Of a stretch of 14,574 nt of DNA, positions 1 to 13,304 are shown in pieces. Origin of the DNA: a virus. Lineage: Duplodnaviria > Heunggongvirae > Uroviricota > Caudoviricetes. The stretch lies in IMG/VR virus record IMGVR_UViG_2851955134_000008; one strand, given 5' to 3'. The stretch's first letter is position 1; every line of letters starts with the position of its first letter. Under the pieces are notes generated by a model. That model had not been told where the DNA came from. It did no database searches and worked only from the letters and a program-made list of their open reading frames with translations. Made by a program: the position numbers and the translations under genes.

Positions 1-1284
1 TTACTTCTTCGCCTCTGCAACCACTTTACTACCCACGCCGCGGTTATTGTATTCCCACATGCGGTTGTAGTTAGTGTCATTCAGATTGCGCTGTATTTCG
101 TCGTTATCATCTACGCTGCCGGTATTACCCGCAAACGGACGATTAGAGATCACCGCATCGGCCCACGGTTTAGCCGTGTTAAAACCTTCGTTGATGGCGC
201 TATCACGGATCACCACCTGACCGTTGGTATTGGCATCAACATCCAGCGAGCGGCCCAGTTGCGCCACACCATCACCGAAAGCATTGAAACGGCTGTTTAC
301 GGCGAGGAAACCGTAGTAAATGTTGGACAGCGTAGCCGGTGCAAACACATACGCTTCTTGCTGAGTACGTGAGTTCACCACGCGGAATTCGGTGTTATCG
401 AACACCACTGCGCCGCGACCAGAAACGATATCCACATCCCCTTCAATGTAGCTGTTGGTCACCAGCGTACGCGGCTGACGATTCGTTTCCAGACGGTTCT
501 GCACACCGCTGTTGGTGACAAAGAAGGTGTTCTGACGACCGAGAATGTTAACGTTGTTAATCTGTACCTGGTCACCATCAGTACGCAGTGCCACCGCCGG
601 ATGGTTACCTGCATCTACGCTATCGCCCAGCGTGTTTTCGATGGTCAGATTTTGCAGTTGCAGGCCATTGTTTTGTGACCAGAAGACCGCAGAGCAGAGA
701 ACACCGATACTGTCGCTGCGTTTGCTCTGGCAGCTATCGTACATATACCACGCTGGTTTACCTGGCATATATTTGCCGCGCGGGTTGACGTCGTGACGCC
801 AGTCGGCAGGGCTCATGCCACCATCAAGGGAAAGCCCAATCTTCACATCAATCGGTTTTTCACCTGTACCGTACAGAGTAATTCCACCCGGAGCGGCAGG
901 GACATATACCGTTCCCTGATACTCACCAGGCATCACGGCAATATACTGGCGCTTGTTGGTACGCTTGATAATTGCCGCATCTACCGCCGCCTGAATCGTG
1001 GTATGCGTTACACCTTGAGTGCCCGCCGGGCCGACAACAAAGTCAGGTTGCGCAGGCAGGGTAATCGGGGAAGGATTCCACGCTGCAGCACCTGGTGTCA
1101 GGGATGCAAAATAGTGTTGAGCATCGAAATTCTGCGCTTCTTTTGCCGACAGAATCGGGCGAGAAGAGGTACCAGGCGCGGTTTGATCAGAAGGACGTTG
1201 ATCGGGCGGGGTTGAGCTACAGGCGGTCAGCGTCACGCCAAAAGCCAATGCCAGCGCCAGACGGGAAACTGAAAATGTGTTCAC
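1..1284 (-). CDS. ybhC: YbhC-type outer-membrane lipoprotein (pectinesterase-like / acyl-CoA thioesterase family), chromosomal gene flanking attB-lambda
   Basis: Complete 427-aa ORF with a lipoprotein signal (LTACSS lipobox). It matches my recollection of E. coli YbhC and sits where ybhC lies beside the lambda attachment site. GC content is host-like. Confidence 0.85.
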   Translation of the reverse strand: MNTFSVSRLALALAFGVTLTACSSTPPDQRPSDQTAPGTSSRPILSAKEAQNFDAQHYFASLTPGAAAWNPSPITLPAQPDFVVGPAGTQGVTHTTIQAAVDAAIIKRTNKRQYIAVMPGEYQGTVYVPAAPGGITLYGTGEKPIDVKIGLSLDGGMSPADWRHDVNPRGKYMPGKPAWYMYDSCQSKRSDSIGVLCSAVFWSQNNGLQLQNLTIENTLGDSVDAGNHPAVALRTDGDQVQINNVNILGRQNTFFVTNSGVQNRLETNRQPRTLVTNSYIEGDVDIVSGRGAVVFDNTEFRVVNSRTQQEAYVFAPATLSNIYYGFLAVNSRFNAFGDGVAQLGRSLDVDANTNGQVVIRDSAINEGFNTAKPWADAVISNRPFAGNTGSVDDNDEIQRNLNDTNYNRMWEYNNRGVGSKVVAEAKK

Positions 1285-1315: not shown

Positions 1316-1420
1316 AATCCGTTGAAGCCTGCTTTTTTATACTAAGTTGGCATTATAAAAAAGCATTGCTTATCAATTTGTTGCAACGAACAGGTCACTA
1401 TCAGTCAAAATAAAATCATT
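1316..1420. other. attL: attL (B-O-P' junction) of a lambda-type integration; 15-bp core GCTTTTTTATACTAA at 1331..1345
   Basis: The exact lambda att core is read directly. To its left is GTTGAAGCCT, the attB bacterial arm as I recall it. To its right is GTTGGCATTATAAAAAAGCATTGCTTATCAATTTGTTGCAACGAACAGGTCACTATCAGTCAAAATAAAATCATTATTTGATTTC, which I recall as the lambda P' arm leading into the int 3' end. Confidence 0.85.
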
Positions 1421-1685
1421 ATTTGATTTCAATTTTGTCCCACTCCCTGCCTCTGTCATCACGATACTGTGATGCCATGGTGTCCGACTTATGCCCGAGA
1501 AGATGTTGAGCAAACTTATCGCTTATCTGCTTCTCATAGAGTCTTGCAGACAAACTGCGCAACTCGTGAAAGGTAGGCGGATCCCCTTCGAAGGAAAGAC
1601 CTGATGCTTTTCGTGCGCGCATAAAATACCTTGATACTGTGCCGGATGAAAGCGGTTCGCGACGAGTAGATGCAATTATGGTTTC
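1419..1685 (-). pseudogene. int: Integrase remnant (3' third of lambda-type int, lacks N-terminal arm-binding and core-binding domains and part of the catalytic domain)
   Basis: Only the Int C-terminal segment up to the stop is present. It still includes the region around the catalytic tyrosine (LSARLYEKQ) and an intact internal GGATCC at 1579..1584. No xis ORF is present. Confidence 0.8.
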
Positions 1686-2057
1686 AACCATGTACCGGAT
1701 GTGTTCTGCCATGCGCTCCTGAAACTCAACATCGTCATCAAACGCACGGGTAATGGCTTTTTTGCTGGCCCCGTGGCGTTGTAAATGATCGATGCAGAGT
1801 GATTCAAACAGGTGCTGGGGCAGACCTTTTTCCATGTCGTCTGCCAGTTCTGCCTCTTTCTCTTCACGGGCGATCTGCTGGTAGTGACGCGTCCAGCTCT
1901 GAGCCTCAAGACGATCCTGAATGTAATAAGCGTTCATGGCTGAACTCCTGAAATAGCTGTGAAAATATCGCCCGCGAAATGCCGGGCTGATTAGGAAAAC
2001 AGGAAAGGAGGTTAGTGAATGCTTTTGCTTGATCTCAGTTTCAGTATTAATATCCAT
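1419..2057 (-). CDS. gam: In-frame chimeric ORF: lambda Gam (GamL start 2057, GamS start 1937; first ~124-127 codons) fused to the C-terminal ~85-88 codons of lambda integrase
   Basis: The N-terminal part ([15 protein letters not shown]...[15 protein letters not shown]...EHIRYMV) matches recalled lambda Gam. The C-terminal part ([21 protein letters not shown]...REWDKIEIK) matches the recalled lambda Int C-terminus. A good RBS (CAGGAG) precedes the GamS ATG. Confidence 0.85.
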
Positions 2058-2155
2058 TTTTTATAAGCGTCGACGGCCTCACGAAACATCTTTTCATCGC
2101 CAATAAAAGTGGCGATAGTGAATTTAGTCTGGATAGCCATAAGTGTTTGATCCAT
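2012..2155 (-). CDS. kil: Kil (47-aa host cell-division inhibitor of lambda)
   Basis: [50 protein letters not shown] matches recalled lambda Kil. AGGAG lies 8 nt upstream of the ATG. It overlaps the cIII 3' end as in lambda. Confidence 0.75.
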
Positions 2156-2288
2156 TTTTTGGGACTCCTGGCTGATTAAGTATGTCGATAAGGCGTTTCC
2201 ATCCGTCACGTAATTTACGGGTGATTCGTTCAAGTAAAGATTCGGAAGGGCAGCCAGCAACAGGCCACCCTGCAATGGCATATTGCAT
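2124..2288 (-). CDS. cIII: CIII (54-aa FtsH/HflB inhibitor, lysogeny regulator)
   Basis: I translated this ORF by hand: [54 protein letters not shown]. It matches recalled lambda CIII and is below the 60-aa cutoff of the supplied ORF track. Confidence 0.8.
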   Translation of the reverse strand: MQYAIAGWPVAGCPSESLLERITRKLRDGWKRLIDILNQPGVPKNGSNTYGYPD

Positions 2289-2360
2289 GGTGTGCTCCTT
2301 ATTTATACATAACGAAAAACGCCTCGAGTGAAGCGTTATTGGTATGCGGTAACGCCGCGC

Positions 2361-2729
2361 TCAGGCGGCTTTGATAGTCATATCATCTGAATCAAATATT
2401 CCTGATGTATCGATATCGGTAATTCTTATTCCTTCGCTACCATCCATTGGAGGCCATCCTTCCTGACCATTTCCATCATTCCAGTCGAACTCACACACAA
2501 CACCATATGCATTTAAGTCGCTTGAAATTGCTATAAGCAGAGCATGTTGCGCCAGCATGATTAATACAGCATTTAATACAGAGCCGTGTTTATTGAGTCG
2601 GTATTCAGAGTCTGACCAGAAATTATTAATCTGGTGAAGTTTTTCCTCTGTCATTACGTCATGGTCGATTTCAATTTCTATTGATGCTTTCCAGTCGTAA
2701 TCAATGATGTATTTTTTGATGTTTGACAT
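2361..2729 (-). CDS. ea10: Ea10-like early pL-operon protein (122 aa)
   Basis: 122-aa ORF in the position and orientation of lambda ea10 between cIII and the sieB/N region. The sequence fits my recollection of Ea10, but I am less certain of this one. Confidence 0.65.
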   Translation of the reverse strand: MSNIKKYIIDYDWKASIEIEIDHDVMTEEKLHQINNFWSDSEYRLNKHGSVLNAVLIMLAQHALLIAISSDLNAYGVVCEFDWNDGNGQEGWPPMDGSEGIRITDIDTSGIFDSDDMTIKAA

Positions 2730-2989
2730 CTATTCATATCCTCACAGATAAAAAATCGCCCTCACATTGGAGGGCAAAGAAGATTTCCAATAATCAGAAC
2801 AAGTCGGCTCCTGTTTAGTTACGAGCGACATTGCTCAGTGTATTCACTCGTTGGAATGAATACACAGTGCAGTGTTTATTAGTATGCCTGTCTTTTAACC
2901 ACATCAGGCTCGGTGGTTCTCGTGTACCCCTACAGCGAGAAATCGGATAAACTCTATTCACCCCTACAGAGAGCAAAAGAGAAACGCCG

Positions 2990-3571
2990 ATGAACAACTC
3001 ATGGTGGCAGGAACTAATGCATTTTTTCCTGCAAGGAATGACACTTAAACAGTTGATTCATATGCTAATCATCCTAATCATATTGATTATTGTTATGCCT
3101 GTAAGCGTAAAAGAATGGATAAACCTGCATAATCCAGAAATCCTTCCTCATTACTGGATGTATTACATCCTGTTGTTTTGCGTTAGCTATGTGCTTAACG
3201 GCGTTGTTAATTCCGCTTATCACGCTGTGACTGAAAGAATTGAGATATTCGCTGCTCAGAAGCGCAAATCTAAAGAAGAGAAATACGTGCAAGATTTGTT
3301 TGATTCGTTAACTCTTGGAGAAAGAGCGTATTTGGCATTCGCTGTAGCCGCTAATAACCAGCTAAAGACAGAAAAGGGAAGCCCTGAAGCAATCTCATTG
3401 CTCGAAAAAGGGCTTCTTATTCGGGTACCTTCTGCTACTGGATATCCTGAAATCGACCGTTTTGTTATCCCGGAACGCTATAGAAATGAGTGCTACATTA
3501 GGTTTGCTGGGAAGAAAGACAGTCTTATGGATGAACTTATCGCTCAGGATAAGCATGGCAAAAACAAGTAA
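2990..3571 (+). CDS. sieB: SieB-like superinfection exclusion protein (inner-membrane abortive-infection protein)
   Basis: 193-aa ORF with a hydrophobic N-terminal segment (LIHMLIILIILIIVMPV) and a charged C-terminal domain. It is transcribed opposite to pL, between N and ea10, where sieB lies in lambda and P22. Confidence 0.6.
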   Translation: MNNSWWQELMHFFLQGMTLKQLIHMLIILIILIIVMPVSVKEWINLHNPEILPHYWMYYILLFCVSYVLNGVVNSAYHAVTERIEIFAAQKRKSKEEKYVQDLFDSLTLGERAYLAFAVAANNQLKTEKGSPEAISLLEKGLLIRVPSATGYPEIDRFVIPERYRNECYIRFAGKKDSLMDELIAQDKHGKNK

Positions 3572-3587
3572 TTAGCAAATTAATTTA

Positions 3588-3860
3588 TCATCTCGCCGTC
3601 AGTTGTTTTGATTTCCGGTAGCCTGCCGCGTAAATGGCTACGTTTGGCAGGCAAATACTTCCACTGCATTCATCTGCCTTCTTGCAGCGAAGGCTTCCGA
3701 GTGATGCTGCTTTGTCTGCTCTGACGCAACCAGAGAGCTTTAGCGCAATTTTTCGCGCCAGTCGCTGTTCTTGCATTGCCTGCTCACGTTGAGCCTGTCT
3801 GCGTGCTCTGCGGCGATTTCTGGCGTTATCGTCAGCCAGATATGTAATGACTACTGCCAT
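3588..3860 (-). CDS. N: N-type transcription antitermination protein (P22 gene 24-like C-terminus, distinct arginine-rich motif)
   Basis: 90-aa ORF with an N-terminal arginine-rich motif (NARNRRRARRQAQREQ). Its C-terminus (LPNVAIYAAGYRKSKQLTAR) closely resembles the recalled P22 gp24 C-terminus (LPGVALYAAGHRKSKQITAR). It is the first gene downstream of pL/nutL. Confidence 0.8.
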   Translation of the reverse strand: MAVVITYLADDNARNRRRARRQAQREQAMQEQRLARKIALKLSGCVRADKAASLGSLRCKKADECSGSICLPNVAIYAAGYRKSKQLTAR

Positions 3861-3967
3861 GTTGACCTCCGATGATTGACTTTGGCGGTGACGCGCCGGG
3901 TGCTTATCTTCCGGTTGCCGTCGTGCAGCTGCACTTCACGTCACCCCAAAGCCAACTACTCTTTGGT

Positions 3968-4008
3968 TCCCGCATTTCGGCGGGACAATCCCATCAATGT
4001 TAAAGAGC
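3968..4008 (-). promoter_or_regulatory. Putative nutL: boxA-like GCTCTTTAACA (3998..4008) followed by boxB-like hairpin (3968..3985)
   Basis: On the minus strand GCTCTTTAACA matches the boxA consensus. Twelve nt downstream is a hairpin (TCCCGC-CGAAAT-GCGGGA). It lies between pL and the N start codon. Confidence 0.5.
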
Positions 4009-4055
4009 CTGCCAATCTGTTCCGTTTGGCTACCAGCGTCCTGCCGATGACTTAA

Positions 4056-4108
4056 ATTTAAGATTTCTTTAACTATTGGTCAAGAGCGTTTTTGAAGAAA
4101 ACTTAAAT
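4056..4108 (-). promoter_or_regulatory. OL/pL region: at least two 18-bp P22-type operator sites (4056..4073 ATTTAAGATTTCTTTAAC; 4091..4108 TTTGAAGAAAACTTAAAT)
   Basis: Both sites fit the NNNNAAGNNNNCTTNNNN pattern shared with the three OR sites. They sit upstream of nutL and N on the leftward transcription unit. Confidence 0.6.
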
Positions 4109-4151
4109 TTTGTTGCGAAGCTTAAGTTTTGCTTTGATTTTTAAAGGAAAG

Positions 4152-4172
4152 AAAAAAAGGGGCGAATGCCCC
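4152..4172 (-). terminator. Rho-independent terminator immediately after the repressor gene
   Basis: On the minus strand a GGGGC-ATTC-GCCCC hairpin is followed by TTTTTTTC, starting right after the cI stop codon. Confidence 0.6.
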
Positions 4173-4823
4173 TTATGGAAGGTTTGCTATTTTTGCATCG
4201 ACAACTACACCGATGATTTTGCAGTTCCCGTTGATCTCAATCATCGGATATTGTGGGTTAAGTGGTTTTAGAAACCTTCTGCCAGCATCAATAACTAACT
4301 TCTTGAAAGTTGCCTCGTTTTCTCCTTCGAGCTTTGCCACTACCAGCTTCCCATTACGAGGTTCTACTTCAGGATCGACTAGTATTATCATCCCTTCCGG
4401 GATGCTAAGACCGGCTGGAGCCGTCATCGAATCACCCTTTACGTCCAGCCAAAACGAATCTTCTGAACAATCTACGGTTGTATCGTACCAGTTATCTATT
4501 GCACGCTTATGATATGGCTCTACAGCTTCCATCCAACATCCTGCGCTTACCCAACTAATTAGAGGATACGAACCTCTTGGATCATGCCTGCTGTGATAGG
4601 CAATGTTTGAAAGACTATCTTCTCCTTTCAACAAGTAATCAGGGGAGCACTGTAAAGCCTTGGCTAAAGCCAATAGGTTTTCGCCATTGGGCTCAGTTTC
4701 AGAACGCTCCCATTGGGAAATAGCAACATTAGACACGCCAACCATCTTGCCAAGGGCAGCCTGCCTAATCTTAAGTTCTTTTCTGCGAGCGCGAATACGC
4801 TCACCCATCAGTTGTGTATTCAT
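4173..4823 (-). CDS. cI: Prophage repressor, P22 C2-type (N-terminal HTH, C-terminal LexA-like S24 autopeptidase domain)
   Basis: 216-aa ORF, near-identical over its length to my recollection of P22 C2 (MNTQLMGERIRARRK.LKIRQAALGKMVGVSNVAISQWERSETEPNGENLLAL...). The Ser/Lys dyad context (GDSM ... K) is present. Confidence 0.9.
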   Translation of the reverse strand: MNTQLMGERIRARRKELKIRQAALGKMVGVSNVAISQWERSETEPNGENLLALAKALQCSPDYLLKGEDSLSNIAYHSRHDPRGSYPLISWVSAGCWMEAVEPYHKRAIDNWYDTTVDCSEDSFWLDVKGDSMTAPAGLSIPEGMIILVDPEVEPRNGKLVVAKLEGENEATFKKLVIDAGRRFLKPLNPQYPMIEINGNCKIIGVVVDAKIANLP

Positions 4824-4889
4824 AGTTAAGACATCTTAAATAAACTTGACTTAAGATTCCTTTGATAGATAATTTAAGTGTTCTTTAAT
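4824..4889. promoter_or_regulatory. OR3-OR2-OR1 operators (4824..4841, 4849..4866, 4872..4889) with pR (-35 TTGACT 4846..4851, -10 GATAAT 4868..4873) and divergent pRM
   Basis: Three 18-bp sites fit NNNNAAGNNNNCTTNNNN, with 7- and 5-bp spacers. OR1 ATTTAAGTGTTCTTTAAT matches the recalled P22 OR1. The region lies between the divergent cI and cro starts. Confidence 0.75.
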
Positions 4890-4903
4890 TTCGGAGCGAG
4901 TCT

Positions 4904-5023
4904 ATGTACAAGAAAGATGTTATCGACCACTTCGGAACCCAGCGTGCGGTACCGAATACTGAAGAATTACGCCAAAACACTGACAGGAGCAGGAGTATGA
5001 AGTCAGAGATAACAATCAACTAA
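4904..5023 (+). pseudogene. cro: cro remnant: first 16 codons of a P22-type cro, then unrelated sequence to a stop (39 codons)
   Basis: MYKKDVIDHFGTQRAV matches the recalled P22 Cro N-terminus. The next 23 codons (PNTEELRQNTDRSRSMKSEITIN) do not, and the ORF is too short for a Cro fold. Confidence 0.7.
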
Positions 5024-5085
5024 TACTGTTTTGTTGATTTTTGCTTGTAATTGGCGTTCTGGTCTGAGTTTTGTGGAGTAAGTTG

Positions 5086-5463
5086 ATGCGTGATATTCAG
5101 ATGGTTCTTGAGCGTTGGGGAGCGTGGGCGGCTAATAATCATGAAGATGTGACCTGGTCGTCCATTGCCGCCGGTTTTAAGGGATTAATTCCTTCAAAAG
5201 TAAAATCTCGCCCACAATGTTGTGACGATGACGCGATGATCATTTGCGGGTGCATGGCCCGTCTGAAAAAGAACAACAGCGATTTGCATGATTTATTGGT
5301 GGACTATTATGTCGGCGGCATGACTTTTATGGCGCTTGCACGTAAGCATGGGCGATCTGATTGTTGGGTTGGCAGGATGCTTCAGAAAGCTGAGGGCGTA
5401 GTGGAGGGTATGCTGATGGTGTTGGATCTCCGATTGGAGATGGATGCTGATTGTTCGAAATAA
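5086..5463 (+). CDS. Q: Late-gene antiterminator Q, phage-21 / DLP12 QuuD / P22 gp23 type
   Basis: [37 protein letters not shown]... matches the recalled QuuD/gp23 family. GGAG lies 7 nt upstream of ATG 5086. It is followed by a short leader and tR'. Confidence 0.85.
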
Positions 5464-5562
5464 TTAAAGGAAAAGTTGCTGTCTGATTGTCATTAGTCTA
5501 ACATTTTAAATGTTGGAATCGCAACGTAGTTATTATCATATAACAGCTTGTTTCCTGATTTA

Positions 5563-5590
5563 GCCAGCCTCCCCAAAGGCTGGTCTTTTT
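5563..5590 (+). terminator. tR'-like rho-independent terminator of the short late leader transcript (Q-antiterminated)
   Basis: CCAGCC-TCCCCAAA-GGCTGG hairpin followed by TCTTTTTCT, about 100 nt after the Q stop. The late promoter pR' and qut site are expected in 5464..5562 but are not resolved. Confidence 0.6.
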
Positions 5591-5618
5591 CTAATAAGTA
5601 TTATTTCGGGTAGGGATT

Positions 5619-6143
5619 TTATTGTTTAACCCATAATAATTCATTGACATTGAATCCCAACTTTTGAGCGGTTCGCACATAGTCTGCTTTTACTTTATCT
5701 GGAATAGTTGGGGTCCTTGCCAGAATCCATAGGTATTCTCTGTTCGGACCACTGACAAGAGCATACTTATACTCATCATCCAGTTTGATTACATTATAGC
5801 CACCATAGAAGGGGCCAAAAAACGAAACCTTCAATGCTGCAGTTTTAGTATCTCCAGTAAAGTATGCTTTACCTTCGCTCTCGCTCCATTTATTTTTCGT
5901 TGGATCGTATCCACGGTTAAGTACACGAATCCCTCCGTCGTTCCGTTTTCCATAAGTAGCGCTGACCTGTTCCAGACCACGTTCGAACCGGTTCTCGAGG
6001 CGAGCTATTTCATACCATTTTCCGAGGTAGCGGTTGGCGTCAAAATTTGTAATCGGCTGCACACCTTTAGGTGGTGTCGGGGCCTTACATGCTATAAGAG
6101 TGAAAGAGAGTGCAATGCCAGTCAACACAGGCCATAACTTCAT
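5619..6143 (-). CDS. Blc-like bacterial lipocalin, outer-membrane lipoprotein
   Basis: 174-aa ORF with a lipoprotein signal (LIAC lipobox). It resembles recalled E. coli Blc throughout (NFDANRYLGKWYEIARLENRFERGLEQVSATY ... KVSFFGPFYGGYNVI ... YLWILARTPT). Confidence 0.85.
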   Translation of the reverse strand: MKLWPVLTGIALSFTLIACKAPTPPKGVQPITNFDANRYLGKWYEIARLENRFERGLEQVSATYGKRNDGGIRVLNRGYDPTKNKWSESEGKAYFTGDTKTAALKVSFFGPFYGGYNVIKLDDEYKYALVSGPNREYLWILARTPTIPDKVKADYVRTAQKLGFNVNELLWVKQ

Positions 6144-6335
6144 AATAAATCCTGTACTTTTGATAGTTGAGAGTAAGTATGAAAGATAGATGATTACGAC
6201 CGATCACTTAAAGAACTTTCATACTATATTAGGAATAGTCCATAACAGAAAAATTGTCAGTGATGACGCCAGAAAGGCAATTTATTCCGTGCACTACACA
6301 GTTTATGTGTTAATGAATTAGTCAAGGGGGAGAAT

Positions 6336-7295
6336 ATGATAAAAAAACCTGTGATTGGAATCAGCGGTTGTTTGGCCGGTTCTGCTGTTCGTTTTGATGG
6401 TGGTCACAAAAGAGCTGACTTTTTAATGGACAAATTAGTGGAATGGGTAACATTCAGACCAGTATGTCCGGAAATGGCTATAGGGCTGCCAGTTCCGCGT
6501 CCTGCTCTACGTCTTGTGCGCTCGATGCAAGGAAATATACGGATGTGTTTCAGCCACGACCAGAATGAGGATGTGACAGAGAGAATGACAGAGTTTAGTC
6601 GTTCTTATATGGACAAATTAAAGGATGTATCGGGGTTTGTGGTTTGTGCTAAATCTCCCAGCTGTGGCATGGAGCGCGTGCGTGTCTATGATGAAAATGG
6701 TAATCGAGGTCGTAAAGATGGAGTGGGACTATTTACGAGCACTTTGATGGAAAAGTTTTCCTGGCTACCGGTTGAAGAGGATGGGCGATTACATGATCCA
6801 GTGCTTCGTGAGAATTTTGTTGAAAGAGTTTTTGCTTTGCATGAGCTCAATCACCTTTACAAGGAGAAATTATCAAGAAGAGAGTTATTAGCTTTTCATA
6901 GTCGTTATAAGCTTCAGTTGTTGGCGCATAGTCAGGCAGGCTATAAAGATATGGGACCATTTGTGGCTGCAATACACGAGTGGGCGGACCTTGAATCATA
7001 CTTTGAGGTGTATCGTGATAAGCTGATGGCGATTCTCAGAAAACCTGCATCACGTAAAAATCACACGAATGTGCTGATGCATATACAGGGGTATTTTAGT
7101 AACTACTTAAGTACACGCCAGCGTAAAGAGTTGAGCGAGGTTATACTTAACTATCGTTCTGGCACATTACCTCTTCTTGCGCCGTTGACTCTGCTGAAGC
7201 ATTATCTGGGTGAGTATCCTAATGATTACTTGCTTACACAGAATTACTTCGATCCCTATCCGGACGAACTGGCTCTAAGACTGATGGTAAATTAA
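6336..7295 (+). CDS. DUF523 (TudS-like, putative Fe-S thiouracil desulfidase fold) fused to a DUF1722 (YbgA-like) domain
   Basis: 319-aa ORF with a GGGGG-like RBS (AAGGGGGAG) upstream. The N-terminal third has three cysteines (C12, C44, C105) spaced as in the TudS family as I recall it. The family assignment is from memory and needs an HMM search. Confidence 0.55.
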   Translation: MIKKPVIGISGCLAGSAVRFDGGHKRADFLMDKLVEWVTFRPVCPEMAIGLPVPRPALRLVRSMQGNIRMCFSHDQNEDVTERMTEFSRSYMDKLKDVSGFVVCAKSPSCGMERVRVYDENGNRGRKDGVGLFTSTLMEKFSWLPVEEDGRLHDPVLRENFVERVFALHELNHLYKEKLSRRELLAFHSRYKLQLLAHSQAGYKDMGPFVAAIHEWADLESYFEVYRDKLMAILRKPASRKNHTNVLMHIQGYFSNYLSTRQRKELSEVILNYRSGTLPLLAPLTLLKHYLGEYPNDYLLTQNYFDPYPDELALRLMVN

Positions 7296-7646
7296 TTGTA
7301 TGCGATATCATCCAAAAGGATGAGTTCCTGCATGCAGGATATTTACAATCGTAAAAACTACACTATGATACCCAGAGTGTCAGTTTGTATAAAAACTCTG
7401 TTTACGCTGAAGAAACAATTGAGATGCAACTTAAAGTTGGTAAACATGCCAGTCAAAATATATAATATTATGATTCCACGCAGCTATATATAATATAACA
7501 GATTGGTTTAATAATTTGTCTTTGTGAGTTAAATACATAATTTTATACTTGTGATGCAATGAAATTTTCCTTATTGTTGAACTGGCGAATATTGATTTTC
7601 CACCTATACTTACCTGGTGTAACCCCAATGATATCAGGTGGATAAT

Positions 7647-8378
7647 ATGCCATACATATGTTCTATCATTTTGGTGTTGAACTCGTTTGATGTCCGAATT
7701 GGTAAAGAAGATATTTTGTTTAAAAAAGGAAGTGCTGTTCTCATTGATTACAATTTAAAAGATTTTTTTTCATCAAATATAGATCATGTAATGATCGTAG
7801 ATGTTGAAGAGAAAACAGTTAATGATTTCTTTAAAAGCAACACACTCTCACCTTTTTCTGTAAGAAGGTTTTATCCGGCATACTTGATGGTGGAATGTGA
7901 AGATTTTTCATTGTTAAAGAACTTGATTGCATGCTTGAATTGTGATGGCAGAACTGTGGATTTTGTTAGAAATCAAATATCACTTGCATGTCTTGCTATC
8001 TTATCTTCAGAGAAAATAGTGCAAAGTTTTTTATTTGGATGTCTTAATAGTTTAGGAAGTAAAGTTAAGGCTATTATTCACACGGATATATCTGCAGCAT
8101 GGAGACTTTGTGATATATCTTCAAGACTGTATCTGAGTGAAAGTCTGTTAAAAAGAAAATTAAAGCACGAAGGCTTATCATTTAGTAAGTTAATTCTTGA
8201 AGAGCGAATGGTGATGGCGGAAAGGTTATTAAGCTACAATTTATATTCTGTTGGAAAAGTTGCTGAGATATGCGGTTATGAAAACACGTCATATTTTGTA
8301 AGTGTTTTCAGAAGGTATTTTGGTGTTCCTCCCCATCAATATTCATCAAGATTTTTTTTAGAAAAAGACATGATGTAA
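7647..8378 (+). CDS. AraC/XylS-family transcriptional regulator (AppY/EnvY/GadX-like), in an AT-rich island
   Basis: C-terminal 100 aa carry the two-HTH AraC signature (..LSFSKLILEERMVMAERLL..VGKVAEICGYENTSYFVSVFRRYFGVPPHQY). AGGTGG lies 7 nt upstream of ATG 7647. An alternative GTG start is at 7638. Confidence 0.8.
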   Translation: MPYICSIILVLNSFDVRIGKEDILFKKGSAVLIDYNLKDFFSSNIDHVMIVDVEEKTVNDFFKSNTLSPFSVRRFYPAYLMVECEDFSLLKNLIACLNCDGRTVDFVRNQISLACLAILSSEKIVQSFLFGCLNSLGSKVKAIIHTDISAAWRLCDISSRLYLSESLLKRKLKHEGLSFSKLILEERMVMAERLLSYNLYSVGKVAEICGYENTSYFVSVFRRYFGVPPHQYSSRFFLEKDMM

Positions 8379-8439
8379 CGTGATGCGTTTTAATGATTTT
8401 GTAATTTTCGTATTTGATAATTGTATGATGCTTTCAGCT

Positions 8440-8470
8440 ACGCCAGAATAATCGCGGCGTTTTTCTTTTT
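8440..8470 (+). terminator. Putative rho-independent terminator downstream of the AraC-family gene
   Basis: ACGCC-N11-GGCGT hairpin followed by TTTTTCTTTTT. Confidence 0.45.
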
Positions 8471-8565
8471 GAATAGATGTTCAAGCCTTACGCTAATGTA
8501 ACTTCTATACCTTTCCTCTTCGTTCCGAACCGTGTACACCATCCGTTATTTGCGGAGGTGAGGCT

Positions 8566-8781
8566 ATGAAATCCATGGATAAGTTAACAACGGGTGTCGC
8601 CTATGGCACCTCAGCAGGTAGTGCCGGTTACTGGTTTTTACAGCTGCTCGATAAAGTCACGCCCTCACAGTGGGCAGCAATAGGTGTGCTGGGTAGCCTG
8701 GTATTTGGCCTGCTGACGTACCTGACAAACCTTTATTTCAAGATTAAAGAAGATAAGCGCAAGGCTGCGAGAGGTGAATAA
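8566..8781 (+). CDS. S: Pinholin, phage-21 S21 type, with dual starts (MKSMDK: antiholin from 8566, holin from 8575)
   Basis: 71-aa ORF matching recalled S21/EssD (..[43 protein letters not shown]). Two transmembrane segments. It lies immediately upstream of the endolysin. Confidence 0.9.
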
Positions 8782-9278
8782 TGCCTCCATCATTACGAAA
8801 AGCCGTTGCTGCTGCTATTGGTGGCGGAGCAATTGCTATAGCATCAGTGTTAATCACTGGCCCAAGTGGTAACGATGGTCTGGAAGGTGTCAGCTACATA
8901 CCATACAAAGATATCGTTGGCGTATGGACTGTATGTCACGGGCATACAGGAAAAGACATCATTCCCGGTAAAACGTATACCGAAGCAGAATGCAAAGCCC
9001 TCCTGAATAAAGACCTTGCCACGGTAGCCAGACAAATTAACCCGTACATCAAAGTCGATATACCGGAAACAACGCGCGGCGCTCTTTACTCGTTCGTCTA
9101 TAACGTGGGCGCAGGCAATTTCAGAACATCTACTCTTCTTCGCAAAATAAACCAGGGCGATATCAGGGGCGCATGTGACCAGCTACGTCGCTGGGCATAC
9201 GCTGGCGGTAAGCAATGGAAAGGCCTGATGACTCGTCGTGAGATTGAGCGTGAGGTCTGTTTGTGGGGGCAACAATGA
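8781..9278 (+). CDS. R: SAR endolysin (signal-anchor-release lysozyme), R21 type
   Basis: 165-aa ORF with an N-terminal glycine/alanine-rich SAR segment ([20 protein letters not shown]) followed by a lysozyme domain. Its start overlaps the S stop (TAATG). Confidence 0.9.
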
Positions 9279-9739
9279 GCAGGGTAACCGCGATTATCTC
9301 CGCTCTGGTTATCTGCATCATCGTCTGCCTGTCATGGGCTGTTAATCATTACCGTGATAACGCCATTACCTACAAAGCCCAGCGCGACAAAAATGCCAGA
9401 GAACTGAAGCTGGCGAACGCGGCAATTACTGACATGCAGATGCGTCAGCGTGATGTTGCTGCGCTCGATGCAAAATACACGAAGGAGTTAGCTGATGCGA
9501 AAGCTGAAAATGATGCTCTGCGTGATGATGTTGCCGCTGGTCGTCGTCGGTTGCACATCAAAGCAGTCTGTCAGTCAGTGCGTGAAGCCACCACCGCCTC
9601 CGGCGTGGATAATGCAGCCTCCCCCCGACTGGCAGACACCGCTGAACGGGATTATTTCACCCTCCGGGAACGACTGGTAATGATGCAGGCCCAACTTGAA
9701 GGTGCTCAGCAATACATAACCGAGCAGTGTTTAAAGTAA
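9275..9739 (+). CDS. Rz: Rz i-spanin (inner-membrane spanin subunit)
   Basis: Starts at ATGA, overlapping the R stop. It has an N-terminal transmembrane segment and a coiled-coil-like periplasmic domain. Rz1 is embedded in the +1 frame. Confidence 0.85.
9495..9680 (+). CDS. Rz1: Rz1 o-spanin (outer-membrane lipoprotein), embedded within Rz in a different frame
   Basis: 61-aa ORF with a lipobox (LVVVGC) and a proline-rich mature region ([15 protein letters not shown]), entirely inside Rz. Confidence 0.8.
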
Positions 9740-9876
9740 AATCTTAACTACAATATGATTCATTTTGATGATTGTTTCATAAGGAACAGTGAAGTAAGAT
9801 CTAAGAGGAGTTAAATTTTATACAGTATAATCATAATATTGCAGCAAGGTGGTTATAATTGAAAGAATATTTAGAT

Positions 9877-11334
9877 ATGAATACATCTCATGTAAGAGTT
9901 GTTACTCATATGTGTGGGTTCCTGGTTTGGCTCTATAGTCTTTCAATGTTGCCACCAATGGTTGTAGCATTGTTTTATAAAGAAAAAAGCCTGTTCGTTT
10001 TCTTTATAACTTTCGTTATATTTTTTTGCATTGGTGGCGGAGCGTGGTATACAACTAAGAAATCTGGCATTCAATTACGTACCCGTGATGGGTTTATTAT
10101 AATTGTAATGTTTTGGATTTTGTTTTCTGTTATTAGTGCATTCCCTTTATGGATTGACTCAGAACTTAATTTAACGTTCATTGATGCTCTGTTTGAAGGG
10201 GTTTCTGGAATAACAACAACAGGAGCAACTGTAATTGATGATGTTAGTTCATTACCTCGGGCATATTTGTACTATCGGTCACAGTTAAATTTTATAGGTG
10301 GTTTAGGAGTTATTGTTCTGGCGGTTGCTGTATTGCCATTATTGGGTATTGGTGGTACAAAGCTTTATCAGTCAGAAATGCCGGGGCCATTTAAGGATGA
10401 CAAACTCACTCCCCGCCTGGCCGATACGTCACGGACACTGTGGATAACTTATTCTTTATTAGGTATTGCTTGTATTGTCTGTTATAGACTTGCAGGAATG
10501 CCTTTGTTTGATGCTATTTGTCACGGGATTTCCACAGTTTCGCTTGGTGGTTTCTCAACTCATAGCGAGAGTATCGGATATTTTAATAACTATTTGGTTG
10601 AGCTGGTGGCTGGTTCTTTTTCCCTGCTATCGGCTTTCAACTTCACTCTTTGGTATATTGTTATTAGCAGGAAAACGATAAAACCTTTAATCAGAGATAT
10701 TGAACTTCGTTTCTTTCTGTTAATAGCCTTAGGGGTGATCATTGTTACCTCTTTCCAGGTCTGGCATATAGGTATGTATGACTTGCATGGAAGTTTTATT
10801 CATTCGTTTTTTCTTGCCAGCTCCATGCTCACTGATAATGGTTTAGCTACGCAGGATTATGCAAACTGGCCCACGCACACGATAGTGTTTTTGCTGTCGT
10901 CAAGTTTCTTTGGGGGATGTATAGGTTCAACTTGTGGTGGAATTAAGTCACTTCGATTTCTTATACTTTTCAAACAAAGCAAACACGAGATAAATCAGCT
11001 TTCTCATCCCAGAGCGTTGTTGAGTGTAAATGTAGGAGGGAAGATAGTTACAGATCGTGTAATGAGGTCTGTATGGAGTTTCTTTTTTCTTTATACTCTC
11101 TTCACGGTGTTTTTTATACTGGTGTTAAATGGTATGGGATATGATTTTCTTACATCATTTGCAACAGTGGCTGCATGTATTAATAATATGGGATTAGGTT
11201 TTGGGGCTACTGCATCGTCATTCGGAGTGCTTAATGACATTGCAAAATATTTAATGTGCATAGCTATGATTCTTGGTCGCCTTGAAATTTATCCTGTTAT
11301 TATATTGTTTTCAGGTTTTTTTTGGCGCTCCTAA
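9877..11334 (+). CDS. trkG: TrkG/TrkH-family potassium uptake transporter (prophage-borne, as trkG in the Rac prophage)
   Basis: 485-aa polytopic membrane ORF matching recalled E. coli TrkG from MNTSHVRVVTHMCGFLVWLYSL onward. The region is AT-rich. An alternative in-frame TTG lies at 9859. Confidence 0.9.
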   Translation: MNTSHVRVVTHMCGFLVWLYSLSMLPPMVVALFYKEKSLFVFFITFVIFFCIGGGAWYTTKKSGIQLRTRDGFIIIVMFWILFSVISAFPLWIDSELNLTFIDALFEGVSGITTTGATVIDDVSSLPRAYLYYRSQLNFIGGLGVIVLAVAVLPLLGIGGTKLYQSEMPGPFKDDKLTPRLADTSRTLWITYSLLGIACIVCYRLAGMPLFDAICHGISTVSLGGFSTHSESIGYFNNYLVELVAGSFSLLSAFNFTLWYIVISRKTIKPLIRDIELRFFLLIALGVIIVTSFQVWHIGMYDLHGSFIHSFFLASSMLTDNGLATQDYANWPTHTIVFLLSSSFFGGCIGSTCGGIKSLRFLILFKQSKHEINQLSHPRALLSVNVGGKIVTDRVMRSVWSFFFLYTLFTVFFILVLNGMGYDFLTSFATVAACINNMGLGFGATASSFGVLNDIAKYLMCIAMILGRLEIYPVIILFSGFFWRS

Positions 11335-11471: not shown

Positions 11472-13304
11472 ATGAGCGAGAAATTAAAGATAGTCTATCG
11501 CCCATTACAAGAATTGTCACCGTATGCGCACAACGCCAGGACGCACAGTACTGAGCAGGTGGCACAACTGGTAGAAAGTATTAAGCAATTCGGCTGGACT
11601 AATCCGGTGCTGATTGACGAAAAGGGCGAAATTATTGCGGGTCACGGTCGTGTTATGGCGGCTGAAATGCTCAAAATGGATTCTGTTCCGGTCATTGTTC
11701 TGTCTGGCCTGACGGATGAGCAGAAAAAGGCGTACCGCCTGGCAGATAATCGCCTACCGATGAATGCTGGCTGGGATGAAGATCTGTTGCGGATGGAGCT
11801 GTCGGACCTAATCAATGCTGATTTTGATGTCTCCCTGACAGGCTTCGGCCCGACACAAATTGATGAACTGTTGACGGATGTTTTGCCCGGTACAGGAAAT
11901 AAGGAGGAGGGGAATACCAATATATCCGGCGTCACGGTGGTGTTCCGGGCCGGTGAGCAGGAGCAGACACCGCCGGAGGGATTTGAATCCTCCGGCTCCG
12001 AGACGGTGCTCGGTACAGAAGTGAAATATGACACGCCGATCACCCGGACCATCACGTCGGCAAACATTGACCGTCTGCGTTTTACTTTCGGCGTGCAGGC
12101 ACTGGTGGAAACCACCTCAAAGGGGGACAGGAATCCATCGGAAGTCCGCCTGCTGGTTCAGATACAACGTAACGGTGGCTGGGTGACGGAAAAAGACATC
12201 ACCATTAAGGGTAAAACCACTTCACAGTATCTGGCCTCGGTGGTGGTGGATAACCTGCCGCCGCGCCCGTTCAGTATCCGGATGCGCAGGATGACGCCGG
12301 ACAGCACCACAGACCAGCTGCAGAACAAAACGCTCTGGTCGTCATACACCGAAATTATCGATGTGAAACAGTGCTACCCGAACACGGCACTGTTCGGCGT
12401 GCAGGTGGACTCGGAGCAGTTCGGCAGCCAGCAGGTGAGCCGTAATTATCATCTGCGCGGGCGTATTCTGCAGGTGCCGTCGAATTATAACCCGCAGACG
12501 CGGCAATACAGCGGTATCTGGGACGGAACGTTTAAACCGGCATACAGCAACAACATGGCCTGGTGTATGTGGGATATGCTGACCCATCCGCGCTACGGCA
12601 TGGGGAAACGTCTTGGTGCAGCGGATGTAGATAAATGGGCGCTGTATGTCATCGGCCAGTACTGCGACCAGTCGGTGCCGGACGGCTTTGGCGGCACGGA
12701 GCCGCGCATCACCTGTAATGCGTACCTGACCACACAGCGCAAGGCGTGGGATGTGCTCAGTGATTTCTGCTCGGCGATGCGCTGTATGCCGGTATGGAAC
12801 GGGCAGACGCTGACGTTCGTGCAGGACCGACCATCAGATAAGGTGTGGACCTATAACCGCAGTAATGTGGTGATGCCGGATGATGGCGCGCCGTTCCGCT
12901 ACAGCTTCAGCGCCCTGAAGGACCGCCATAATGCCGTTGAGGTGAACTGGATTGACCCGAACAACGGCTGGGAGACGGCGACAGAGCTTGTTGAAGATAC
13001 GCAGGCCATTGCCCGTTACGGTCGTAACGTCACGAAGATGGATGCCTTTGGCTGTACCAGCCGGGGGCAGGCGCACCGCGCCGGGCTGTGGCTGATTAAA
13101 ACGGAACTGCTGGAAACGCAGACCGTGGACTTCAGCGTGGGTGCGGAAGGGCTTCGCCATGTACCGGGGGATGTCATTGAAATCTGCGATGATGACTATG
13201 CGGGTATCAGCATCGGCGGGCGTGTGCTGGCGGTGAACAGCCAGACCCGGACGCTGACGCTCGACCGTGAAATCACGCTGCCATCCTCCGGTAAATCCGT
13301 TTAA
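11472..13304 (+). CDS. J: In-frame chimera: ParB-like nuclease-domain protein N-terminus (~145 aa, YnaK-like) fused to an internal segment of lambda tail-tip protein J (to about J residue 530), then a stop 3 codons past the J homology
   Basis: Residues 1-145 carry a ParB/Srx-like motif ([11 protein letters not shown]). From [36 protein letters not shown] to REITLPSSG the sequence matches recalled lambda J. J's N-terminal ~65 residues and C-terminal ~600 residues, including the receptor-binding end, are absent. Confidence 0.85.

Follow-up and report, generated by a model that had tools for sequence, protein, structure and literature searches.

In Pseudomonas aeruginosa the repressor AlpR undergoes self-cleavage after DNA damage, which derepresses alpA; the processive antiterminator AlpA then allows transcription of alpBCDE and the cell is lysed (PMC7969949; PMC9371919). 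The authors suggest that the system originated from a prophage (PMC7969949; PMC9371919), and the sequence of AlpA was reported to be unrelated to those of lambda Q and other antiterminators (PMC7969949). Here, we describe an element of comparable logic in the IMG/VR virus record IMGVR_UViG_2851955134_000008 (Caudoviricetes); this stretch of 14,574 nucleotides (nt), analyzed over its whole length and numbered from its first letter, is referred to as the window. At the lambda attachment site it contains what is left of a lambda/P22-hybrid prophage, which neither replicates nor excises. In this remnant a single deletion of 4,655 bp has placed the antiterminator gene Q about 210 nt behind the promoter pR, which is repressed by the prophage repressor C2. 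The reading that we favor, with a probability of roughly 60%, is that of an accidental short circuit, by which DNA damage would lead to lysis of the host.

At the level of anatomy, the logic of the window element matches that of the Alp system: a repressor of the kind that is cleaved upon DNA damage directly controls an antiterminator gene (pR at 4846-4873, Q starting at 5086), and the antiterminator would carry transcription past a terminator into holin-type lysis genes. As AlpA is unrelated in sequence to Q, the element resembles Alp in logic and not in family. This logic is not new, being already known from AlpR-AlpA-AlpBCDE. In contrast to the Alp system, which is fixed in the P. aeruginosa chromosome and has a demonstrated role, the window element is a rare lambdoid deletion allele that still has pL-N-cIII-kil, cargo genes and signs of disarming. 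What is new are mutations in the hexamers of pR in half of the known carriers of this allele.

The intact lambdoid cascade (pR, N/nutR, tR1-tR2, nin, Q, pR'-tR', S-R-Rz) contains the same parts in the same order, but in the window one promoter-to-gene step replaces its delayed, N-dependent and Cro-moderated route. In lambda, the nin5 deletion takes the terminators ahead of Q, which renders Q independent of N. The deletion in the window likewise removes the terminators before Q; however, it is far larger, as cro, nutR, cII, O and P are also lost and no phage is possible.

The cryptic prophage DLP12 of E. coli K-12 encodes quuD and essD-rrrD-rzpD/rzoD, and a QuuD-type Q was reported to control the DLP12 lysis cassette, according to work cited in PMC7918800. 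By descent, the element groups with lambdoid Q-lysis cassettes such as that of DLP12. The window and DLP12 share the gene order rusA-ylcG-Q-cargo-S-R-Rz; the identities amount to 88% between Q and QuuD and to 97% between the endolysin R and RrrD, and the leaders upstream of Q differ in a single base. In contrast to the window, the stretch of DLP12 that was compared has no repressor gene, operators or pR before quuD and has retained its nin genes; its Q also diverges over the C-terminal third, as does the DNA that follows. Further systems in which DNA damage leads to lysis of the producer via a short chain are the R/F-pyocin control (PrtR-PrtN) and the SOS-controlled colicin lysis genes (PMC8609362, PMC12066065). 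They have in common with the window the DNA-damage trigger and a short chain ending in phage-type or dedicated lysis genes, but they release a defined weapon, none of which is evident in the window. Their lysis is controlled by a transcription activator or directly by LexA; an antiterminator is not known to be used.

The Deletion Junction and the Loss of Cro

The intact sister prophage L001, located at the same chromosomal site in E. coli strain WP8-S18-CRE-02 (NZ_AP022245.1), served as reference. Window positions 1678-4951 are 100% and positions 4950-7507 are 99.9% identical to L001, and these two matching blocks are separated in L001 by 4,655 bp that are absent from the window. The junction lies at 4950-4951, where codon 16 of cro is joined to codon 31 of ylcG. 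As the flanks share only the TA at the join, i.e., a 2-bp microhomology, the event was an illegitimate deletion. According to L001, the lost segment comprised cro codons 17-61, nutR, cII, O, P, ren, ninB, a methyltransferase gene, ninE, ninX, a DUF1364 remnant, rusA and the first 30 codons of ylcG, together with a strong tR2-like terminator. In a preliminary description of this DNA it had been noticed that cII, the replication genes and the nin region are absent between cro and Q, and all of them are found within the piece that is present in L001. It had also been proposed to place the junction by alignment to P22 cro and to the region upstream of Q; the identity to P22 Cro extends up to codon 16, and the leader before Q is that of DLP12 except for one base. 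Separately, L001 has an IS1 in place of window positions 7508-8517.

What remains of cro is a stub of 39 residues on the plus strand (4904-5022, stop codon at 5020-5022), in which 16 cro codons are followed by the tail of ylcG read out of frame and for which no Pfam match was found. Its start, MYKKDVIDHFGTQRAV, is identical to the Cro proteins of P22 (PDB 1rzs) and of the sister prophage, and divergence sets in after codon 16, at nt 4951, which is where the end of the Cro homology had been placed before. Judged from its sequence, this cro' stub is not a Cro. Since only 16 of the 61 residues are retained, the Cro feedback is lost and, as had been proposed, the negative feedback on pR would be removed with it.

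Occurrence of the Junction

The exact fusion open reading frame (ORF) of 39 residues was found on seven other contigs, two of them from NCBI E. coli assemblies and five from ENA gut-type metagenome assemblies, and a variant differing in two residues is present in a Logan assembly. The seven related contigs, in the following referred to as carriers, are 99.2-99.9% identical to the window. One of the carrier isolates is that of GCA_946060455.1. Any further carriers of the allele would be recognizable by the 34-mer CAGCGTGCGGTACCGAATACTGAAGAATTACGCC. The whole stretch 4100-5620 was found in one place in none of 5,426 complete E. coli genomes, although each half of it is matched perfectly in hundreds of them, and exact junction searches of the GTDB species representatives, the JGI metagenomes and IMG/VR returned nothing further. 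The junction occurs in several backgrounds, with and without a second deletion that joins gam to int and with different DNA after Rz, and it has therefore persisted through later rearrangements. Altogether, the junction is real but rare.

The C2 Repressor, the Operators and pR

The gene on the minus strand at 4173-4823 encodes a prophage repressor of the P22 C2 type with 216 residues and Pfam matches to HTH_3 (6e-17) and Peptidase_S24 (6e-31). Over residues 1-76 it is almost the same as P22 C2 (1adr, E 2e-39), and an Ala-Gly site (VSAGCW) as well as the motifs GDSM and FKKL are recognizable by eye. The repressor gene is the same in all carriers except L007, which encodes the exchange Y86S (L007 position 554, corresponding to window 4567) in the linker before the cleavage region; L007 also has a mutation in the -35 hexamer of pR. 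The 119-residue repressors called in L002 and L003 were considered as a natural knock-out and rejected, as their DNA over 4173-4823 is that of the window and the short calls reflect start-codon choices by the gene caller.

The right operator region extends over 4824-4889 and contains OR3 (4824-4841), OR2 (4849-4866) and OR1 (4872-4889), which deviate in 0, 1 and 0 positions, respectively, from the pattern ANTNAAGNNNNCTTNANT, which we take to be the operator consensus of P22. Over 90 nt, exactly this sequence is present in 70 complete E. coli genomes. The immunity region is thus of the P22 type in having a C2-type repressor with helix-turn-helix and S24 domains and three 18-bp operators that overlap divergent promoters, of which pRM is a candidate; of a functional cro, 16 of 61 codons are left. 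The promoter pR overlaps OR2 and OR1 on the plus strand (4846-4873) and consists of TTGACT, a spacer of 16 nt and GATAAT; it has a 10/12 promoter match and the top score of the region with a position weight matrix (PWM). The transcription start is predicted near 4880. The sequence TAATTT at 4870-4875, two bases downstream of the -10 hexamer GATAAT, scores nearly as high.

The Leader Between pR and Q

The distance from the -10 hexamer of pR (4868-4873) to the ATG of Q is about 210 nt; the 180 bp given in the preliminary description hold for the distance between the ATG codons of cro and Q and not for that from pR. As had been stated there, a strong intrinsic terminator is not seen on this path: none was called by a plus-strand terminator scan of 4824-5563. 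No boxA was found between pR and Q in the window, and the leader taken as a whole folds no better than shuffled sequence (z = -0.4). The sole terminator-like feature from pR to Q is a weak, AU-rich hairpin with U-run at 5014-5048 in the native ylcG-Q spacer, which was not reported by the scan. Its stem (5014-5020/5033-5039) has two G-C pairs and a loop of 12 nt, with -7.2 kcal/mol and z = -1.4, and is followed by UUUUGCUUG; the hairpin is identical in phage IdasGreatGrand and in DLP12. As the stop codon of the cro' stub falls in its 5' arm, ribosomes that finish the stub should hinder its folding.

In the parental arrangement of L001, rightward transcription has two obstacles to pass on its way to Q, both within the deleted segment. 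Just after cro it passes nutR, with the boxA TGCTCTTTAACA and a boxB hairpin identical to that of nutL, and between ren and ninB it encounters a strong terminator of 8 pairs, 6 of them G-C, with a T-run, in the same position as lambda tR2. As the deletion took both nutR and this tR2-like terminator, and as no terminator is called before Q, we accept from the sequence that pR would drive Q directly and without need for N.

Q, the Candidate Late Promoter and the Lysis Genes

Q is encoded on the plus strand at 5086-5463 and is the next gene after the cro' stub, as had been described before. It is an antiterminator of 125 residues of the Q21/QuuD family, with a Shine-Dalgarno sequence GGAG at 5075-5078, seven bases before the ATG. 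It matches PF06530 end to end (2e-51) as well as the Q21 structures 6p18/6jnx (E 2e-8), and it is identical to the Q of the sister prophage. Compared with DLP12 (window 5086-5620 vs L010 2957-3560), the protein is a mosaic: the first ~76 residues are almost those of QuuD, whereas the C-terminal third and all DNA past the stop codon have diverged. Joint change of the DNA-binding part of Q and of the site that it binds would be expected to give such a pattern.

Lambdoid Q late cassettes consist of the Q gene, pR', a sigma-dependent pause, a terminator and the late genes (bioRxiv 10.1101/651190). The window has a Q of a known family, an intrinsic terminator before the late genes and lysis genes on the same strand, and the module occurs in a viable phage. 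Downstream of Q, the highest PWM score was obtained for a candidate for the late promoter pR' on the plus strand at 5476-5504 (TTGCTG, 17-nt spacer, TAACAT), and -10-like hexamers are present at 5531-5539. A 10-nt inverted repeat, TCTAACATTT / AAATGTTGGA, at 5497-5517 overlaps the -10 of this candidate, and the 8-nt sequence CTGATTGT is directly repeated at 5447 and 5483; either of these repeats could be a protein-binding site, e.g., the Q binding element. The terminator tR' (5563-5590, plus strand) is formed by a G+C-rich hairpin at 5563-5584 of 8 pairs, 5 of them G-C, and a T-run; it has -14.2 kcal/mol and z = -3.0, and none of 200 shuffles was as stable. A late promoter at the candidate site would without Q yield a short terminated RNA of ~80 nt, as in other lambdoid phages.

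The terminator is followed by three cargo genes identified with Pfam, encoding a lipocalin (5619-6143, minus strand), a YbgA-like protein (6336-7295, plus strand) and an AraC-family regulator (7638-8378, plus strand), in an order shared with the intact sister prophage and with IdasGreatGrand, an isolated phage. The gene of the AraC-family regulator is intact in the window and was lost repeatedly, with independent 1-base deletions at 7763 in L003 and at 8352 in L005 and with the IS1 that takes its place in L001. The lysis genes, all on the plus strand, encode an S21-type holin (S, 8566-8781; Pfam; identical to the S of the parent), an R21/RrrD-like endolysin (R, 8781-9278; 97% identical to RrrD 4zpu and R21 3hde), Rz (9263/9275-9739; Pfam) and Rz1 (9495-9680; Pfam). 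The lysis proteins are full length, and Q and S are identical to those of the parent, so that inactivating mutations, whose oversight the preliminary description had named as a risk to its claim, are not seen in Q or in the lysis genes. As the ylcG-Q-cargo-S-R-Rz block is 97.9% identical in the isolated phage IdasGreatGrand, with an identical leader before Q and the same region after Q except for a common C/T site at 5585, the late module is, by sequence, of a kind that is functional in a viable phage. A Q-lipocalin-ybgA-lysis block that is ~91% identical to window 4950-9664 is found in the lambda records LR597644, LR595860, NC_049947 and others (Lambda_ev*, Lambda_2E9) and in phage 1H12.

Mutations of pR Among the Carriers

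With the window counted, a hexamer of pR is mutated in four of the eight carriers. In L002, L004 and L007, which are from different samples, the exchange 4848 G>A converts the -35 hexamer TTGACT to TTAACT, and in L008, which differs from the window in 2 positions over 3.4 kb, the exchange 4869 A>T converts the -10 hexamer GATAAT to GTTAAT. Both positions are located in the spacers between the operators and outside of the candidate pRM hexamers, so that 4848A and 4869T look from the sequence like pure pR mutations. For comparison, 504 copies of this operator region beside an intact cro from 488 complete genomes were used. Among these intact copies 4848A was found once and 4869T not at all, where the 40-mer queries seed only on the variant base and the 90-nt mutant queries could not exclude variants in diverged copies. 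The single copy with 4848A (L009; NZ_CP075006.1, strain 6629, 9001-9036) belongs to an otherwise intact prophage, in which cro, cII, O, P and the nin genes are all present. The difference between 4/8 and 1/504 corresponds to P = 1e-7 (Fisher). The 12 hexamer bases contain 2 of the 28 isolated variant positions over ~8.7 kb (Poisson P = 7e-4; with a target of 50 nt, P = 0.01).

Carrier L003, the closest relative of the window, has kept pR and encodes a private exchange in Q, A15G, in the conserved ERWGAWA stretch shared with Q21 (10226, corresponding to window 5129); no full-length match to this variant was found among 3,783 places matching the Q region in complete genomes. By A15G the circuit may have been disarmed in a second way. 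Two other sets of differences were rejected as candidates. The exchange 5585 C>T in L004 and L007, which lengthens the T-run of tR', was considered as compensatory and is a common allele, present as an exact 90-mer in 508 complete genomes and also in IdasGreatGrand. The exchanges 5068 G>T, 5214 A>G and P36T of Q in L005 and L006 were considered as damage to Q; all are the states of K-12 DLP12, and 5068T is found exactly in 1,592 complete genomes.

The enrichment of pR hexamer mutations in the carriers suggests that the path from pR via Q to lysis is live and costly, and that lowering pR became advantageous once Q sat behind it. The copy in the window has wild-type pR and Q and is armed; in the carrier lineage there are signs of disarming at pR.

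Proposed Mechanism

From the anatomy and the known behavior of the family, we infer the following sequence of events. In the undamaged cell, C2 bound to OR1 and OR2 would keep pR closed, and pL would be repressed as well. After DNA damage, RecA-stimulated self-cleavage of C2 would open both promoters. The transcript from pR would contain the cro' stub and Q without an effective terminator, so that Q would be made at once and without N, and the transcript from pL would supply N, cIII and Kil. At the late promoter, immediately downstream of the Q gene, Q would join the polymerase and allow read-through of tR' (5563-5590), and late transcription would pass through the three cargo genes into S-R-Rz/Rz1, resulting in lysis by which no phage is released. 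As Cro is absent, a later turn-down of pR, pL or pRM would not take place. The loss of Cro would also end the repression of pRM that normally locks the lytic state, which would be minor once the holin fires.

The preliminary description had interpreted the locus as a two-step lysis switch triggered by the SOS response, without phage production. The parts and their order agree with this, and production of phage is precluded by the loss of the genes for replication, excision and virion. Our reading differs in the nature of the switch: given the rarity of the allele and the pR hexamer mutations in half of its known carriers, a hazardous accident in the course of being disarmed fits the data better than a maintained or refined device.

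Several points weigh against a damage-triggered short circuit. The candidate pR' is weak by consensus, and both pR' and the sigma-dependent pause element remain candidates. The weak hairpin with U-run at 5014-5048 could attenuate unmodified pR transcripts. If the -10 of pR were TAATTT, the exchange 4869 A>T would matter less. The test for enrichment in the promoter was post hoc and comprises only two independent promoter events, and 4848A, found also once in an intact prophage, is not restricted to carriers of the deletion. As three carriers and the window have wild-type pR, any cost must be tolerable. Finally, the outcome could be altered by the rest of the host genome, e.g., if it lacked a host factor or contained another prophage of the same immunity.

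Alternative Explanations

The alternative that survives best is that the element is inert wreckage, i.e., that the deletion is a random loss in a dying prophage, that the path from pR via Q to lysis does not fire harmfully and that the pR variants reflect neutral decay. Possible causes might be a low output of Q from unmodified pR transcripts, a weak late promoter or a small dose of holin and endolysin. The weak candidate pR' and the hairpin before Q are in line with such causes, the half of the carriers that have wild-type pR evidently survive, and the same element has suffered two more deletions of large size (gam'-'int, 1678-1685; parB'-'J, near 11909). Neutral decay, however, would have to account for the hexamer bases being hit with P = 7e-4, and all other parts are identical to working phage sequence. 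The similar Q-lysis cassette of DLP12 is harmless in K-12, but quuD has no strong repressor-controlled promoter there, so that this harmlessness is not transferable to the window. We regard inert wreckage as possible, though doubtful.

According to a further explanation the locus is a domesticated module for self-lysis, selected as a programmed death of the Alp kind, by which the cell contents are released upon DNA damage or an infection is aborted via an incoming antirepressor. This would share its logic with AlpR-AlpA-AlpBCDE, which is itself thought to be derived from a prophage (PMC7969949), and it would agree with the persistence of the junction in several structural backgrounds, with the intact repressor, Q and lysis genes in the window and with the retention of sieB. 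A selected module should, however, hardly be absent from all 5,426 complete genomes as well as from the GTDB representatives, JGI metagenomes and IMG/VR, nor have a damaged pR in half of its carriers, and a Pfam scan revealed no toxin, bacteriocin or obvious released good in the late operon; we therefore consider domestication unlikely. That the cro-ylcG join is an assembly or sampling artefact from a chimeric contig, as its absence from all complete E. coli genomes might indicate, is highly improbable, given the identical fusion ORF on seven contigs from independent isolates and metagenomes, including contigs of 85 kb and 318 kb with the same chromosomal flank, and its sequence variant in another assembly.

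Further Features of the Prophage Remnant

The window opens with ybhC (1-1284, minus strand), the neighbor of the lambda attachment site, and all DNA beyond it belongs to the degraded lambdoid prophage. The genes follow in the order ybhC, gam'-'int, kil/cIII/DUF2528 gene, sieB, N, C2 repressor, operators, cro stub and Q; after Q come the hairpin terminator, lipocalin (opposite strand), YbgA-like, AraC-family, S, R, Rz/Rz1, trkG, parB'-'J and tail-fibre genes. The exclusion gene sieB is kept.

The leftward early arm on the minus strand (3588-4083) is under the same repressor and has kept pL (4083-4055), nutL (boxA 4008-3999, boxB about 3986-3968) and N (3588-3860), which has an N_peptide domain match. 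Further left than N are cIII (2124-2288, Lambda_CIII match) and kil (2012-2155, Lambda_Kil match), both also on the minus strand. In an Rfam scan of the whole window the lambda cIII thermoregulator element (2243-2301, minus strand, 88.5 bits) was the only match, and no known RNA element was found from pR to tR'; as the cIII thermoregulator is the sole Rfam match, the left arm is considered lambda-like, next to the P22-like immunity region.

Two further deletions were identified in the window. The gam'-'int fusion ORF (1419-2057, minus strand) has its junction at 1678-1685 with an overlap of 8 bp; gam is joined to the 3' end of int, and bet, exo, xis and most of int are lost. Since L008 has the cro-Q deletion without the gam'-'int deletion, the former may be the older of the two. 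The parB'-'J fusion ORF of 610 residues (11472-13304, plus strand, break near 11909; Pfam ParB_N + FNIII-A_GpJ + Phage-tail_3) joins a ParB-like N-terminus to the C-terminal part of the tail protein J, by which head and tail genes were removed. The potassium transporter gene trkG (9859-11334, plus strand) directly follows Rz, as in the intact sister prophage, and any Q-modified late transcript would meet it in its path.

Implications for the Origin of Lysis Modules

The Alp system and the lysis control of pyocins are assumed to be descendants of prophages, and intermediates are seldom seen. For the present locus, sequences are available of the parent and of several descendants, and the deletion is known to the base, which gives a testable picture of how an Alp-like module originates, and the descendants suggest what the next stage looks like, as the promoter that feeds Q was hit repeatedly. 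That an Alp-like programmed-death module is seen here at the moment of its birth, with armed and pR-down versions coexisting in a commensal E. coli lineage, is a tentative idea that we hold to be rather unlikely; if true, it would offer a natural system to study selection, by altruistic lysis or antirepressor-triggered abortive infection, as opposed to mere tolerance. If lysis proves dependent on the SOS response and on Q, one deletion would suffice to create an Alp-like circuit, and its cost or benefit would be directly measurable. A short prophage remnant that is annotated as defective could then still kill its host after treatment with DNA-damaging antibiotics.

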